Sequence record: PQ657772.1 | Length of the DNA stretch: 64,000 nt | Direction: 5' to 3' (one strand) | Source of the DNA: Escherichia phage EC.P1 | Shown: positions 2,400-25,075 of the stretch, one piece after another | How positions within the stretch are numbered: position 1 is the stretch's first letter | Layout of the letters: each line of letters starts with the position of its first letter | The notes under the pieces: model-generated | Seen by the model: the letters and a program-made list of their open reading frames with translations, nothing else | What the model was told of the DNA's origin: nothing | Database searches by the model: none | Translations under genes and position numbers: made by a program

Positions 2400-2852
2400 T
2401 TAGTTATATGAAGTAAATAGATCAATACTTTCATCATCTACACTGATTAATTTACCAGTTGAACTAACAAACACAATATTACCACCAGGGGTGAGTTGAA
2501 CACGCTGGTTTACTGAATATTGATCACTAAGGTTATAATTAGCCCATTCAACTACATAACGCTGTTCAACACCATTAGTATCATAAAGATAAACGTGTGT
2601 AACATCACGCATTTTTAAACGGTCTAACAGTGTAGAGTTATCCATGAAATCCGATGGTGTATCACTACGCAATGCAATACCGAACTCACCAATACCAGTA
2701 CTAATAGTTAGACCGTTGGAAAAACGACTACAAAGAGTTTTCTCGTCAGCAATATGCATCCATAAAACATTCTTTACATCAATCTCAATGAACTCACAAT
2801 TTTCAAAAACTAAACCTACTTTAGAAACCTTACCATTAAATTGCATCATCAA
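2400..2852 (-). CDS. hypothetical protein (150 aa)
   Basis: Six-frame ORF. Confidence 0.5.
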   Translation of the reverse strand: MMMQFNGKVSKVGLVFENCEFIEIDVKNVLWMHIADEKTLCSRFSNGLTISTGIGEFGIALRSDTPSDFMDNSTLLDRLKMRDVTHVYLYDTNGVEQRYVVEWANYNLSDQYSVNQRVQLTPGGNIVFVSSTGKLISVDDESIDLFTSYN

Positions 2853-3285
2853 CTCCTATTTTTTTGTATTTTAAAATAAAATCTCTTGCTGCTTTCATAA
2901 GTTTAAATGGAATAGCTAATTCTTTGACAGTACTATCCATGAAATGTTCTTCTTCTGTATCATAGAATGTTGACATGAAATGGTCACAATCATCAATTCT
3001 ATCCCAGAAATCAGAAGTACTTGGTTTGTTGGCAATAACAGTGATTGTTTTAGTATAGGAAGCATGTATCGTTAATCCAATATCACCCTTTTCAACACGA
3101 ATTATAAATGAACTATCAGATGTATAGTTCAGCCAACAATCTTTACCGAAGTATACAGTACTGTGTTTCTTCTCAAATGTATTACTGTTTTCAAGTACAT
3201 CAATGACAATATCAACTGCATTATCACTTAAAATTTTGACCATATCATCTTCCTCGTAGGGTTCTGGCAATTTCAAAGATACCAT
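2836..3285 (-). CDS. hypothetical protein, C-terminal FQ-block family member
   Basis: Six-frame ORF; contains DTEEEHFMDSTVKE block shared with about 20 paralogs. Confidence 0.55.
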   Translation of the reverse strand: MVSLKLPEPYEEDDMVKILSDNAVDIVIDVLENSNTFEKKHSTVYFGKDCWLNYTSDSSFIIRVEKGDIGLTIHASYTKTITVIANKPSTSDFWDRIDDCDHFMSTFYDTEEEHFMDSTVKELAIPFKLMKAARDFILKYKKIGVDDAI

Positions 3286-3315
3286 TTATGTTGTCAATTG
3301 TCAACATTTAAATGT

Positions 3316-3732
3316 TTATCCTTTATTTTGTTGTACGTTTTTATGTAGTACACCACAAATATAAAATAATTTACTTAGATTAGAATAACTTATGTTAGTT
3401 AGATCGTATACGAAATTTAGTTGCATGTACATATCTTCAGTTAAATCATACAACGATTCATCCACATCAATTACGATTTTGTGCGTGGTATCAATCTCTA
3501 CTTTATTAGGCCACATATCAATAACATAATCATTACCATGTTTTTCAGATATGGAAATGAACACATTATCGCTTTGTTCTAAAAACTCCATGTATCCGTT
3601 AAGAAATGATCCAGTTATTATCTCATATTCACCAGAATAATACGTTGTTCTGGACTCAAATGCATTAAAAAATATAAAACGATATGTTTGGTTGATATAC
3701 TCATCCATTAAACTAATAACTTCTTTATTCAT
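3316..3732 (-). CDS. hypothetical protein, weak FQ-block family member (start moved to internal Met)
   Basis: Track ORF 3316..3792; first 20 codons are the terminator hairpin; ATG at 3732 has GGGGA Shine-Dalgarno; block LTEDMYMQLNFVYD. Confidence 0.45.
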   Translation of the reverse strand: MNKEVISLMDEYINQTYRFIFFNAFESRTTYYSGEYEIITGSFLNGYMEFLEQSDNVFISISEKHGNDYVIDMWPNKVEIDTTHKIVIDVDESLYDLTEDMYMQLNFVYDLTNISYSNLSKLFYICGVLHKNVQQNKG

Positions 3733-3750
3733 TACATTAATCCCCACAAG

Positions 3751-3782
3751 AAAAAAGGCCGATTCATAATGAATCAGCCTTA
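3751..3782 (-). terminator. rho-independent terminator
   Basis: Minus-strand hairpin aaggctgattcat / atgaatcggcctt followed by TTTTTT. Confidence 0.55.
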
Positions 3783-3972
3783 AGTATAACACAGTAGAAG
3801 TAAAAATGTCAACTTCTAAAATACAGTATCAAAGAGGAATAAAAAAGATACTGTTAGAGGGTAACGAATATAATGAACCATGAGGGTGATATCATTATAC
3901 TTTAAAAGAGTGATAGCTTCTAGACAAAAGGAGGAATTCAGTACCGACTAGAAGCTATCCGGTTAAACGATT

Positions 3973-4257
3973 TCAGTACTGAATGTTTAGTTTAGGATGA
4001 GTATGTCCATCTTCGATTTGCTTTAGAATCGAGTCGCGGATCTCCACTGCACCCTGATAACTGTATTTATCGTTCGGAACTACCCATGTATATTCACCAT
4101 CAGTGGTTTTAAAATCAATACATGGATTGTCTCTGTATTCAGATGCAATGATTGAAATAACATGCAATGAATTCAATGAATGATTTATATAAGGATAATT
4201 GTTATTGTCTCGGAACGTGAATGTTTTTAGTTCATCAGGTGCAACAATAAATTCCAT
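3973..4257 (-). CDS. hypothetical protein (94 aa)
   Basis: Six-frame ORF. Confidence 0.5.
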   Translation of the reverse strand: MEFIVAPDELKTFTFRDNNNYPYINHSLNSLHVISIIASEYRDNPCIDFKTTDGEYTWVVPNDKYSYQGAVEIRDSILKQIEDGHTHPKLNIQY

Positions 4258-4448
4258 TATTCATCCTCGTACTTCTTGAATGGTTGAACATCTCCATTGA
4301 AGTCTTTGCACATCTTAGTTGCACGAACTTCAGTGTTGTTGTGGTAATTTTTCTTAAATTCATAAGAAACATAATTACGAATACCAGGTGTATGAATAAT
4401 AGCAAGAACCAATGTACGACCAAATAAGCATAACAAATTCAAAAACAT
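4257..4448 (-). CDS. hypothetical protein (63 aa)
   Basis: Six-frame ORF whose stop overlaps the start of 3973..4257; preferred over overlapping 4235..4423. Confidence 0.4.
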   Translation of the reverse strand: MFLNLLCLFGRTLVLAIIHTPGIRNYVSYEFKKNYHNNTEVRATKMCKDFNGDVQPFKKYEDE

Positions 4449-4461
4449 ATTAAGCTCCGAG

Positions 4462-23430: not shown

Positions 23431-23485
23431 AAATTTATCCTCTATGCATCATTATCTTACAGTGTAGGATAAACCCACGATAATG

Positions 23486-23881
23486 TCAAGATGTGAATTG
23501 CTTATACCAGTGATACAGTTCTTTCAATTCTTCAGTACTGAATAGAACATCTTCAATCGTTGTTTGTTGGAAGTGGTAATCTTCATTTAAGTACATTGAA
23601 ATATTTTTATATACTTTTCGATTACATTTCCCAAGAAATGATGTTCTTTTGGATGTATATTCAATAAATGTTAACTTATCTAATTCTACATCCAATGACA
23701 ATTTCATACAGTATTCAGTATCATCTACGTACATAAGTTTATTTGAATAACAATCAACTGTGATATATTCTTTATGTGAGAATTGGTATATACCATTAAA
23801 TTTTTTACCATTTGTACTTCTGAATTTTTCAAGGTAATAAGAGAGTGGTTTAGATATTGTACTACCAATAGTATTATTCAT
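23486..23881 (-). CDS. hypothetical protein, FQ-block family member (tandem array)
   Basis: Contains NEDYHFQQTTIEDV. Confidence 0.5.
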   Translation of the reverse strand: MNNTIGSTISKPLSYYLEKFRSTNGKKFNGIYQFSHKEYITVDCYSNKLMYVDDTEYCMKLSLDVELDKLTFIEYTSKRTSFLGKCNRKVYKNISMYLNEDYHFQQTTIEDVLFSTEELKELYHWYKQFTS

Positions 23882-23902
23882 AGAACCTCAAAATTTAGAC
23901 AA

Positions 23903-23926
23903 GAAAAATGCCCCGAAGGTCGGGGC
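23903..23926 (-). terminator. rho-independent terminator
   Basis: Minus-strand hairpin gccccga/tcggggc followed by ATTTTTCTT. Confidence 0.55.
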
Positions 23927-24038
23927 AGTACGAAAAAGATTTTGTACAAAAAAGGGGAATAATACAATAAAATAATAACGCATCATTATTATGTAAGGGA
24001 GGAAAGTAACATGATAATGTTAACCATTACTGGTATAA

Positions 24039-24590
24039 TTATTTATCATTTAATTCTTTTAATTGAGCTTGTATATCACCAGAAAGTTTACGGATTTTCT
24101 TGAAACAGTAAACACTATCATCAAGTTCAAGTTCTAGGCCGTGAGTGATTGCATAAAGCATTTCTGCAAGTACTAGATCCTGACGCATCCAGTTACCATT
24201 TTTATAGGTTGTCATTACACAATAAGGACAGTGGCTGTTTCCGGTTTGTTTACCCAGGAACACAGATTGGATTGTATCATGCTTGAAACCCACAAAAGAT
24301 TGGTTGATCTTGTTGATTTCAGCTACTACGTCCATTTGTGCACCAGTGTTGATTGCAAACACTTGGTCACCGTTCTCGGTTTTGTTAATGTTTAGTTCAA
24401 TATCACTACCAAGTTTACGAACAGCCAATGTATAAAGTAGGATTTCATACATATCATAATTGGTTGTTTCACCATTTGGTGCAGTTACATCGAGACTAAC
24501 ACCATGCATTTTAACTTCAGTACTGAATCCATCTTTATCTGCTAGAAAATCAGTGATTTGTTCAGTTAGGATTTTAATTTGTTCAATCAT
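24039..24590 (-). CDS. hypothetical protein (183 aa)
   Basis: Six-frame ORF between two terminators. Confidence 0.55.
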   Translation of the reverse strand: MIEQIKILTEQITDFLADKDGFSTEVKMHGVSLDVTAPNGETTNYDMYEILLYTLAVRKLGSDIELNINKTENGDQVFAINTGAQMDVVAEINKINQSFVGFKHDTIQSVFLGKQTGNSHCPYCVMTTYKNGNWMRQDLVLAEMLYAITHGLELELDDSVYCFKKIRKLSGDIQAQLKELNDK

Positions 24591-24610
24591 TATTCATATC
24601 CTTATGTTGG

Positions 24611-24636
24611 AAAAAGCCCCCATTACGGAGGCTTTT
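24611..24636 (-). terminator. rho-independent terminator
   Basis: Hairpin agccccc/ggaggct with flanking A and T runs, downstream of 24647..25075. Confidence 0.45.
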
Positions 24637-24646
24637 GTTAATCTAA

Positions 24647-25075
24647 TTATAGGGAAGCTTCGTATTCAGCTACAATGTCAACCATCTCATTGACAAAGTT
24701 GATATGGTCATGAGTTACGGTACGGAAATCATAAACCAGTGATTGTTGGAAGAATACGTCTTCAGCCAGATTACCTTCAAAGTTCAGGTCGATGTTTTCT
24801 TCATCGTTGGTTGGAGCAACTTTGATATTTAGTTGATTTTCATCAACGACCAATTTCACTACACAACCCAATGCAATCGCCAGTACATAGGCAGGTTTCT
24901 TAGCTGCTTCAGAACGGAATGGAGCACGTAGTGCACAAATGGTGCTGCTAATCTCATCATTCAGTTCTTTATATTTAACGTTAATCATCAGTTCTTCAAT
25001 TTTGACGCTCTCGATTACACGACCAGTTTCAGCAGCGAAGAAAGAGTGGTTACGGATAGTTTGTTCGATATTCAT
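24647..25075 (-). CDS. hypothetical protein, FQ-block family member
   Basis: Contains NLAEDVFFQQSLVYD. Confidence 0.55.
   Translation of the reverse strand: MNIEQTIRNHSFFAAETGRVIESVKIEELMINVKYKELNDEISSTICALRAPFRSEAAKKPAYVLAIALGCVVKLVVDENQLNIKVAPTNDEENIDLNFEGNLAEDVFFQQSLVYDFRTVTHDHINFVNEMVDIVAEYEASL

Follow-up and report, generated by a model that had tools for sequence, protein, structure and literature searches.

Nineteen paralogous genes on one strand

The window (the whole 64-kb stretch of DNA that was analysed) carries on its minus strand, between positions 2836 and 25075, an array of small genes whose products share a block with a central Phe-Gln near the C-terminus. The strict pattern [DE][DE]..F[QM].[STCLN][TLMIV][IVLT] matched 16 minus-strand ORFs in this region and none on the plus strand. 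When the residues of the minus-strand ORFs were shuffled 1000 times, 0.027 matches were found on average and one at maximum; this expectation, together with the strand asymmetry, excludes chance or a compositional artefact. Profile searches added three degenerate copies (7846-8223, 3316-3732 and 11207-11611), and beyond these no match with E<0.01 exists anywhere in the 64 kb. Therefore, the family has 19 members here and not at least 20, as the first-pass annotation had it, although the shared block itself was rightly recognized there and all 14 block peptides which it quoted were located in minus-strand ORFs where it had placed them. Its statement that the block lies 25–50 residues before the C-terminus is true for 17 members (32–50 residues) but not for two with C-terminal tails (69 and 84 residues). 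A non-circular profile, trained solely on 55 distant relatives and here called the independent profile, recovered 16 of the 19 at E<=1e-3; weak by this measure are 12715-13107, 7846-8223 and 11207-11611.

In the following, the block fits the strict motif and the E-value refers to the independent profile unless stated otherwise. The array begins with a protein of 149 aa (2836..3285, block TEEEHFMDSTVKE, E=7e-11) and one of 138 aa (3316..3732), which starts with MNKEV as in WPEC3 and P0018 and has the degenerate block TEDMYMQLNFVYD (independent C-terminal profile E=7e-6, N-terminal-only profile E=0.019). Next are two neighbours of 119 aa (4462..4821, TEESLFQYSMIND, E=8e-12) and 138 aa (4814..5230, TEEKFFQYCLVND, E=1.6e-12), the N-terminus of the former resembling the latter. 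The 125-aa product of 7846..8223, with a degenerate block (DEADEFQKRTVYE), is a probable member: it was found by the seed profile (E=0.0035) and not recovered by the independent one (E=1.1), and size, block position and motif fit. A member of 121 aa lies at 8611..8976 (TEEEYFQTSTLQE, E=1.8e-9). Also a probable member is the 134-aa product of 11207..11611 with the degenerate block SVEEEFQYNLLYPD, which was matched by the family profile (E=7e-4) and the N-terminal-only profile (E=0.025) and which the independent C-terminal profile missed. It is followed by a protein of 162 aa (11608..12096, TEEERFMLSTINP, E=1.8e-5), which starts with MPIRGV and has a basic C-terminal tail, and by one of 130 aa (12715..13107, SEEDEFQKNTTLS), for which the seed and family profiles gave E=3.5e-14 and 1.2e-8, values that are circular, and which the independent profile did not recover.

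Further members are found at 17505..17948 (147 aa, LEEMYFQQLTVQE, E=6e-7), at 18328..18783 (151 aa, NDEYVFQQSTVHD, independent C-terminal profile E=5e-4), which is the best match of the N-terminal-only profile (E=2e-4), and at 18780..19292 (170 aa, SEEEFFQRSTIID, E=1.4e-12), which ends in a helical tail of about 45 aa. Then come the genes at 21337..21792 (151 aa, pI 4.05, TEEALFQLSTVSN, E=2.4e-9), 21786..22241 (151 aa, TEEGYFQESLVKN, E=1.4e-11), 22238..22633 (131 aa, EEDELFQLSLIEK, E=1e-3), 22614..23018 (134 aa, start MVSLLD, TEESFFMDSTVND, the best match of the independent profile with E=1.6e-13), 23020..23430 (136 aa, SDESLFQRSLIDD, E=1.3e-10) and 23486..23881 (131 aa, NEDYHFQQTTIED, E=2.2e-5). 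The last member, 24647..25075 (142 aa, AEDVFFQQSLVYD, E=8e-9), is syntenic with RaK2 ORF184. Members are mostly acidic, with a median pI of 4.7. The ORF 55637-55894, a weak profile match, lacks the motif and encodes a low-complexity helix, and hence was not accepted as a member.

Fold and conservation of the shared block

Two paralogues with 16% identity, 22614..23018 (pLDDT 92.8, pTM 0.85) and 8611..8976 (pLDDT 91.7, pTM 0.83), were modelled with AlphaFold2, both from one MAFFT family alignment in which the N-terminal columns are uncertain. Both models show a common plan of helix, beta-meander and helix-helix. The first has seven strands, the block as helix 93–102 and then a helix 110–130; the second has a helix, five strands, the block as helix 88–97 and then a helix 104–120. 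The 10-residue stretches which cover the block reach a mean pLDDT of 88–97. The top viral structural match was an uncharacterised RaK2 protein (TM 0.86). The models thus strongly support a predicted architecture in which each member consists of an N-terminal helix, an antiparallel beta meander of 5–7 strands and, at the C-terminus, a hairpin of two helices. In this plan, the FQ block comprises the first hairpin helix, the turn and the N-cap with which the second helix begins. The first helix opens with T/S as its N-cap and continues as EE-x-[YF]-F-[QM]-x-S-[TL]-[VIL]; the turn reads x-D-h-x-x-h, and the second helix is capped by [TS]-[YF]-E-[DE].

The N-termini had initially been described as highly divergent. 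In pairwise comparison they are, as BLAST similarity was found only for the adjacent 4462/4814 (E=0.001), but they are still homologous: an N-terminus-only HMM, trained on 55 distant relatives and run against 142 window ORFs with the members truncated ahead of the block, had members as all ten of its top matches (hypergeometric p=1.4e-10). Furthermore, the strand hydrophobics I26, I38, I46 and I48 as well as D/N41 are conserved and alternate with polar variable positions. Because the entire 120–170 aa protein is one homologous domain, the block is not an independent module set on unrelated N-termini. From the earlier suggestion of a shared folding or interaction module there remains the core of the fold, its part with the best conservation, which is a helix-turn-helix hairpin predicted to pack on the beta sheet; structure prediction of the shared C-terminal part, which the first-pass annotation had suggested, gave this hairpin with confidence within one compact domain. 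There is strong support that one single-domain family, undescribed until now, comprises all 19 ORFs as diverged paralogues.

In an alignment of 122 family sequences the conserved positions are E93 (113 sequences), E94 (112), F97 (121), Q98 (98, with Met in the remaining 24), S100 (109), D104 (87) and E111 (75), and positions 95, 99 and 103 of the block helix are variable. Variation would hence be limited to i, i+4 and i+8, with approximately two thirds of the helix circumference invariant. Between orthologs, the hairpin shows 83% identity and an omega of 0.18, the rest of the protein 73% and 0.30. These conservation patterns suggest that the block is kept as a structural core, and its helical periodicity and the Q/M exchange point to burial in the fold. 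The alternate strand hydrophobics would then face the hairpin, and the other sheet face appears polar and hypervariable. The near-invariant polar residues E93, E94, S100 and D104 exceed what capping boxes need and could form a common functional site; no conserved basic partner for them was found anywhere in the 122-sequence alignment.

One may ask if the repeat is rather a DNA-level element within the 3' portions of these genes, such as a promoter, recombination site or RNA motif, with the peptide likeness as a by-product, since the start of the next gene follows the block at a distance of 75–150 nt, where a promoter might be situated. However, synonymous codons are free at every conserved residue (Phe TTC 9 and TTT 9; Gln CAA 10 and CAG 6; Ser AGT 7 and TCN 5; three to five different codons each for the conserved Thr, Val and Leu of the block). 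Therefore, conservation acts on the protein and not on the DNA. The peptide motif is also kept across phages without alignable DNA. The codon analysis refutes a DNA-level repeat, and we give it practically no chance. Cleavage of ExxYFQ-S by a 3C/NIa/TEV-like or other protease, which would free a C-terminal peptide, had been considered initially on the ground of a superficial resemblance between E-E-x-Y-F-Q-x-S and the TEV site E-N-L-Y-F-Q-S/G, both being acidic-x-x-Y/F-F-Q with a Ser within the next two residues. The P1' rule for a small residue is not obeyed, however: S, G or A follows the Q in 6 of 122 sequences, compared with Q in 31, L in 26, Y in 15, E in 14 and K in 11, the conserved Ser occupies P2' instead of P1', and P1 is Met in 24 of 122 (20%). 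In the models, the block is a helix (93–102 and 88–97, respectively) internal to the fold of a compact domain (pTM 0.83–0.85) and no exposed linker. The sole protease in the phAPEC6 virion table is a prohead core scaffold/protease (PMC7247149). Family members are missing from the virion proteome of this phage. A prohead protease of the T4 gp21 type, if that of phAPEC6 is of this type, would cut after Glu. The protease site is largely refuted by these data and thus extremely unlikely.

Distribution, copy number and known families

Therapeutic use is being developed for Rak2-like jumbo phages (121Q, PBECO4, phAPEC6, RaK2, K64-1, GAP32, CBB), in which over 80% of the genes lack an annotation. The data strongly support that the family is specific to this group, where it occurs in Asteriusvirus, Alcyoneusvirus/RaK2, relatives from Cronobacter and Erwinia, and uncultured phages of about 350 kb. 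An exhaustive search of representative sequences yielded 111 clusters (50% identity), all of 60–230 aa and with the block near the C-terminus. Homologue searches with two family alignments returned close orthologs only (17 and 5 matches, all "hypothetical protein"), and a related-locus search with the canonical sub-alignment returned three loci. With tblastn, a 42-aa consensus, too short a query for significance, gave one marginal match among isolated phages, in Erwinia phage Hallingskeid (E=3e-3). In WPEC3 and phAPEC6, which are near-identical phages, 20–21 members occur (phAPEC6 20), with one copy common to both and absent from this window; RaK2 possesses seven, and two uncultured contigs hold a minimum of 10 and 14 copies, respectively, within 20 kb. 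Tandem duplication appears to have expanded the set, and copies are probably still gained and lost. Omega is below 1 in every ortholog pair with phAPEC6, therefore these are real genes, and no direct sign of positive selection was seen in this comparison. Members evolve faster than their neighbours (median omega 0.24 vs 0.08, p=6e-4).

That the block belongs to no named domain, as first noted, is substantiated here. The 19 window members have no match in Pfam, and the curated cut-offs of Pfam, NCBIfam and PADLOC were not reached; matches below them are scattered singletons, such as PF21220 in one of 122 relatives, which is not among the 30 relatives scanned singly. A PDB profile search gave nothing below E=0.6. 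In PHROGs the 19 members are spread over about 20–28 separate families of unknown function with only occasional cross-matches, each member matching one or a few (e.g. phrog_24941, 24321, 17453, 21500, 30841) with E down to 1e-105. These entries stem from 121Q-type phages and represent the same proteins, but the unity of the family, its fold and its function are not recorded there. Every database name for a homologue is "hypothetical protein", and the literature searched, jumbo-phage papers included, does not describe the family. Among the closest known systems are the Polo-box domains (PLK1/2/4, Cdc5) and the p32/gC1qBP/Mam33 family. Neither was matched in sequence: a PF00659 match is absent from the 19 members and 122 relatives, and in the alignment of the latter no column is conserved as a basic residue (His, Lys or Arg), such as Polo-boxes use for phosphopeptide binding; for p32 a PF02330 match is absent in Pfam and the PDB profile search was equally negative.

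Expression and possible function

Within 1-27 kb, 19 near-consensus (at least 11/12) sigma-70 promoters are located on the coding strand and none on the other, compared with about one in shuffles. Sigma-70-like promoters are present throughout the window, also in the flanks of replication genes, and therefore are not specific to the family. The genes may be transcribed early by the host sigma-70 RNA polymerase, and their products seem to be cytoplasmic and not packaged. It could be argued that they are internal or ejected virion proteins and that the conserved C-terminus is a capsid-targeting or packaging signal. The inner-body proteins of PhiKZ form paralogous families, and the heads of 121Q and phAPEC6 contain a radiation-sensitive inner structure. 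For 121Q, Bubblegram-type inner material was reported (PMC7247149). But none of the 62 virion proteins of phAPEC6 maps between gp078c and gp149c (PMC7247149 Table 1), where all orthologs of the members lie (gp083c-gp134c), the RaK2 and WPEC3 records mark neighbouring genes as virion structural and no family member, and the genes stand amid strong sigma-70 promoters in an early-type region. On the published proteomics, the idea of virion proteins was rejected as very unlikely.

The explanation which we regard, by a modest balance, as the probable one is an undescribed paralogue family with a hairpin core that supplies early, diversified binders or inhibitors. Its members are probably early-made binders of host proteins: in this mostly acidic set, the scaffold would stay constant and the sheet surface would vary, to meet different host proteins that are targets of defence or of take-over. 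Alternatively, the conserved hairpin is the functional site, an acidic surface docking on one common partner (host protease, chaperone, RNA polymerase or phage hub protein), with the variable sheet selecting cargoes; this would resemble the C-terminal PRANC/F-box motifs of poxvirus ankyrin proteins. The near-invariant polar residues, E111 included, lack a conserved basic residue to pair with, the block is much better conserved than any other part across the 111 clusters, and the hairpin is under the tighter constraint between orthologs, all of which speaks for docking. On the other hand, the narrow free stripe (95, 99, 103) suggests that the block helix is buried, with the sheet on one side and the second helix on the other, a Q98/Met exchange is typical of a semi-buried position, T-E-E and [TS]-x-E-[DE] are ordinary helix N-capping boxes, and there is no known partner. 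Such docking is unlikely but should be taken seriously. Rather improbable is a system in which the invariant acidic hairpin (T-E-E-x-Y-F-Q-x-S-T-V-x-D) docks all paralogues on one machine, e.g. a host AAA+ protease, a chaperone or a phage hub, and the hypervariable sheets capture different host defence or housekeeping proteins. If true, it would be the bacterial-virus counterpart of the poxvirus ankyrin-PRANC/F-box substrate receptors, a modular and quickly evolvable way for Rak2-like jumbo phages to neutralise many host factors.

In each genome, about 20 genes named "hypothetical" and so far dispersed in PHROGs now form one family. Its signature is defined, its fold is modelled with confidence and its evolutionary pattern is clear, which makes it a well-defined experimental target. 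The arrays are ancient and still gain and lose copies, and the proteins keep their core constant as their surface varies, a pattern typical of gene families for host interaction and counter-defence. If the individual copies turn out to inhibit different targets, they would richly supply new anti-defence proteins and partially explain such large genomes; if not, annotation pipelines still gain a clean new domain definition. The ASFV MGFs and the poxvirus ankyrin/PRANC genes are likewise small-protein genes in many tandem, fast-diverging copies in an early or accessory part of the genome, with copy numbers that vary between close relatives. Gene expansion is also known from Bacillus phage G, with about 35 zinc-ribbon copies (PMC7824862), and from RaK2, with "about 10% paralogues" (PMC3622015), but in sequence and fold all these are unrelated to the family described here.

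Count and conservation of the FQ block

All 14 peptides listed by the first-pass annotation were located in the window. The strict pattern [DE][DE]..F[QM].[STCLN][TLMIV][IVLT] occurs in 16 minus-strand ORFs, all between 2836 and 25075, and in no plus-strand ORF of the window, while the mean was 0.027 matches when the residues of the minus-strand ORFs were shuffled 1000 times; the repeated block is thus real. A profile derived from these 16 added three degenerate copies (7846-8223, 3316-3732 and 11207-11611), and beyond the resulting 19 no ORF in the whole 64 kb was found at E<0.01. 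To avoid circularity, a further profile was trained on 55 distant relatives only. It recovered 16 window ORFs at E<=1e-3, with the ORFs 12715-13107, 7846-8223 and 11207-11611 as weak members. Therefore, the count for the window is 19, 16 of them solid, and not the "at least 20" originally given. Such numbers (20–21 copies) are found in the phages WPEC3 and phAPEC6. Their extra copy lies between the genes at 2836-3285 and 3316-3732, that is, between window positions 3285 and 3316 (L001 2477-2881 and L005 4344-4775 in the relatives), where the window has none; phages that are otherwise almost identical are polymorphic for the presence of this copy.

Synonymous codons at the conserved residues are mixed: F is encoded by TTC 9 and by TTT 9 times, Q by CAA 10 and by CAG 6 times, and the conserved Ser by AGT 7 times versus TCN 5 times. 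The block is conserved at the protein and not at the DNA level, and this free codon use rules out a DNA element.

Nearly all genes of the window are on the minus strand, and its GC content is approximately 35%. By megablast, the segment 17000-25500 matched 36 records of jumbo coliphages and Salmonella phages (347–386 kb), the closest being Escherichia phage WPEC3 (99.5%), with 121Q and phAPEC6, the latter classified as Asteriusvirus, at ~86–87%. When 1.84 billion representatives were searched exhaustively by HMMER, the C-terminal profile hit 111 clusters (defined at 50% identity) with E<=1e-3; without exception these are 60–230 aa long and carry the block, with a very regular signature, near the C-terminus. 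The ten distant clusters that were looked up all came from metagenome assemblies, and of two metagenome contigs one holds at least 10 copies within 20 kb and the other at least 14. IMG/VR loci of 346–358 kb have 5–7 copies per 20 kb; among them is RaK2 (ORF184, 186, 187, 189, 191, 196 and 198), which shares with the window the gene order near its DNA cytosine methyltransferase gene and the gene of a small virion protein. Structural matches in BFVD were uncharacterised proteins of RaK2 (TM 0.86) and GAP32. From the copies and the synteny across these phages it follows that the arrays predate the split of the Rak2-like genera and have expanded and contracted since.

The C-terminal profile also matched weakly three WPEC3 ORFs outside the window (L002 37756-38286, 15232-15924 and 31785-32357; E 2e-6 to 2.5e-4), which may be very divergent members. 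The metagenome protein P0095 (233 aa) joins in a single reading frame a homolog of the 96-aa ORF 20732-21022, as judged by eye, and a family member; either a genuine fusion or an error of assembly could explain this.

A new family with a common fold

The members match nothing in Pfam, NCBIfam or PADLOC and no sequence in the PDB, as anticipated from the impression that this was not a named domain. In PHROGs the 19 members are spread over 28 families of unknown function, and in the databases the proteins are called "hypothetical protein" throughout. About 10% of the RaK2 genes are paralogous (PMC3622015), and the jumbo-phage literature searched treats paralogy in general terms and does not mention the FQ family. 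One of the 122 sequences in the family alignment matches PF21220 (RecQ-1-like HTH; E=3.7e-12), a match found neither among 30 of these relatives scanned singly nor, in the Pfam scan, in any window member. A new single-domain family with lineage-specific expansion is well supported; with it, some 20 anonymous genes in each genome become a single system open to experiment.

Two paralogues with a mutual identity of 16% were modelled from the 122-sequence alignment. The model of 22614-23018 (pLDDT 92.8, pTM 0.85) starts with a short helix at the N-terminus and continues with seven antiparallel strands (13–86), a helix at 93–102, a loop and a helix at 110–130; that of 8611-8976 (pLDDT 91.7, pTM 0.83) has a helix at 2–14, five strands and helices at 88–97 and 104–120. 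In both, the first C-terminal helix is T-E-E-x-[YF]-F-Q-x-S-T-V with T as N-cap, x-D-h-x-x-h is a turn, and [TS]-[YF]-E-[DE] caps the second helix. Among the 122 sequences the columns E93, E94, F97, Q/M98 and S100 are near-invariant and T92, T/L101, V/I102 and D104 strongly conserved; the variable positions 95, 99 and 103 form a single stripe of the block helix. Hydrophobic residues of the strands (26, 28, 38, 46, 48, 68, 70 and 86) alternate with variable polar positions. These models suggest a two-layer architecture, in which one face of the sheet would pack on the conserved hairpin and the opposite face would be exposed and hypervariable. We infer burial of the block indirectly and not from the model coordinates. 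That the block is the structural core of the family is well supported.

The N-termini are divergent, as had been noted, insofar as pairwise BLAST between them found one similar pair only, the neighbours 4462 and 4814. They are not unrelated, however. An HMM of N-termini only, built from the 55 relatives without close kin in the window, was searched against 142 window ORFs, the members being cut before the block, and members took all ten top places (p=1.4e-10), so that homology extends over the whole protein length. Thus, of the proposed shared module it holds that the block is the best-preserved part, but it is not fused to unrelated sequences.

Putative function

The interpretation given by the first-pass annotation holds in part. 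Its second suggestion, processing by a protease at the FQ block, fails: the residue at P1' is S/G/A in 6 of 122 sequences, M stands for Q at P1 in another 24 of the 122 counted at that position, and both models show the block as a helix. A role as virion proteins likewise fails, since the phAPEC6 orthologs (gp083c-gp134c) are missing from the published virion proteome of that phage (PMC7247149).

On the coding strand of 1–27 kb there are 19 near-consensus (>=11/12) sigma-70 promoters, with none on the other strand and ~1 in shuffles. A further 12 are on the minus strand of 27–64 kb, the plus strand having none across the window, and sites are also found beside replication genes. The promoters in 1–27 kb are consistent with early transcription by the host polymerase, though predicted sites also occur elsewhere in the window. 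The members are acidic (median pI 4.7; 81% below 5.5). Compared with phAPEC6 they all show omega<1 and diverge faster than their neighbours (median identity 77% versus 87.5%; omega 0.24 versus 0.08, p=6e-4).

The most likely reading of these proteins, which we hold tentatively and at somewhat less than an even chance, would make them binders or inhibitors produced early and acting in the cytoplasm, in which a common scaffold would present diversified sheet surfaces directed at host proteins. The likeness to protein-binding modules is an analogy at fold level only and not evidence of membership. Within the members, omega is 0.18 in the hairpin and 0.30 elsewhere, so that the hairpin is under tighter constraint than the rest. 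In the main competing explanation, a minority possibility still to be taken seriously, the proteins would be adaptors, with the invariant acidic hairpin as their common docking site.

Neighbouring features of the array region

A DNA cytosine methyltransferase gene lies inside the array in three divergent lineages: at 19819-20679 in the window, at 8709-9602 in the RaK2 locus L009 (ORF194) and at 11500-12324 in the divergent relative L004. The synteny of this likely anti-restriction gene with the family array is conserved. RaK2 and L004 also have a PTH2 peptidyl-tRNA hydrolase inside the array.

Between sub-arrays of the family, the minus strand carries five tRNA genes (Thr-TGT, Asn-GTT, Met-CAT, Ser-ACT and Ser-TGA; 5707-9729), for which the equivalent WPEC3 annotation lists a partly different set. 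Two minus-strand HNH-type homing-endonuclease-like ORFs (5247-5714 and 7277-7834, the latter annotated HNH/NUMOD4 in WPEC3) adjoin this cluster, and the gene content around them differs between the window, WPEC3 and phAPEC6.

Outside the window, the opposite strand of WPEC3 holds an array of ~15 paralogues annotated as RCC1-like "regulator of chromosome condensation" (L002, 30.5–47.6 kb), so that this genome has two large expansions of paralogous genes; the phAPEC6 virion table lists proteins named DNA condensation proteins, which may be orthologs.

Two tandem repeats were seen. A 161-nt unit (2.1 copies, 83% identical) is at 9188-9532, where WPEC3 and phAPEC6 have three consecutive 165-nt ORFs annotated. 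A 78-nt duplication (26118-26276; 2.1 copies, 96% identical) doubles a near-perfect sigma-70 promoter, with -35 boxes at 26254 and 26176, and gives rise to the ORF 26021-26227, in which the peptide LLLSLTVPQG occurs twice.
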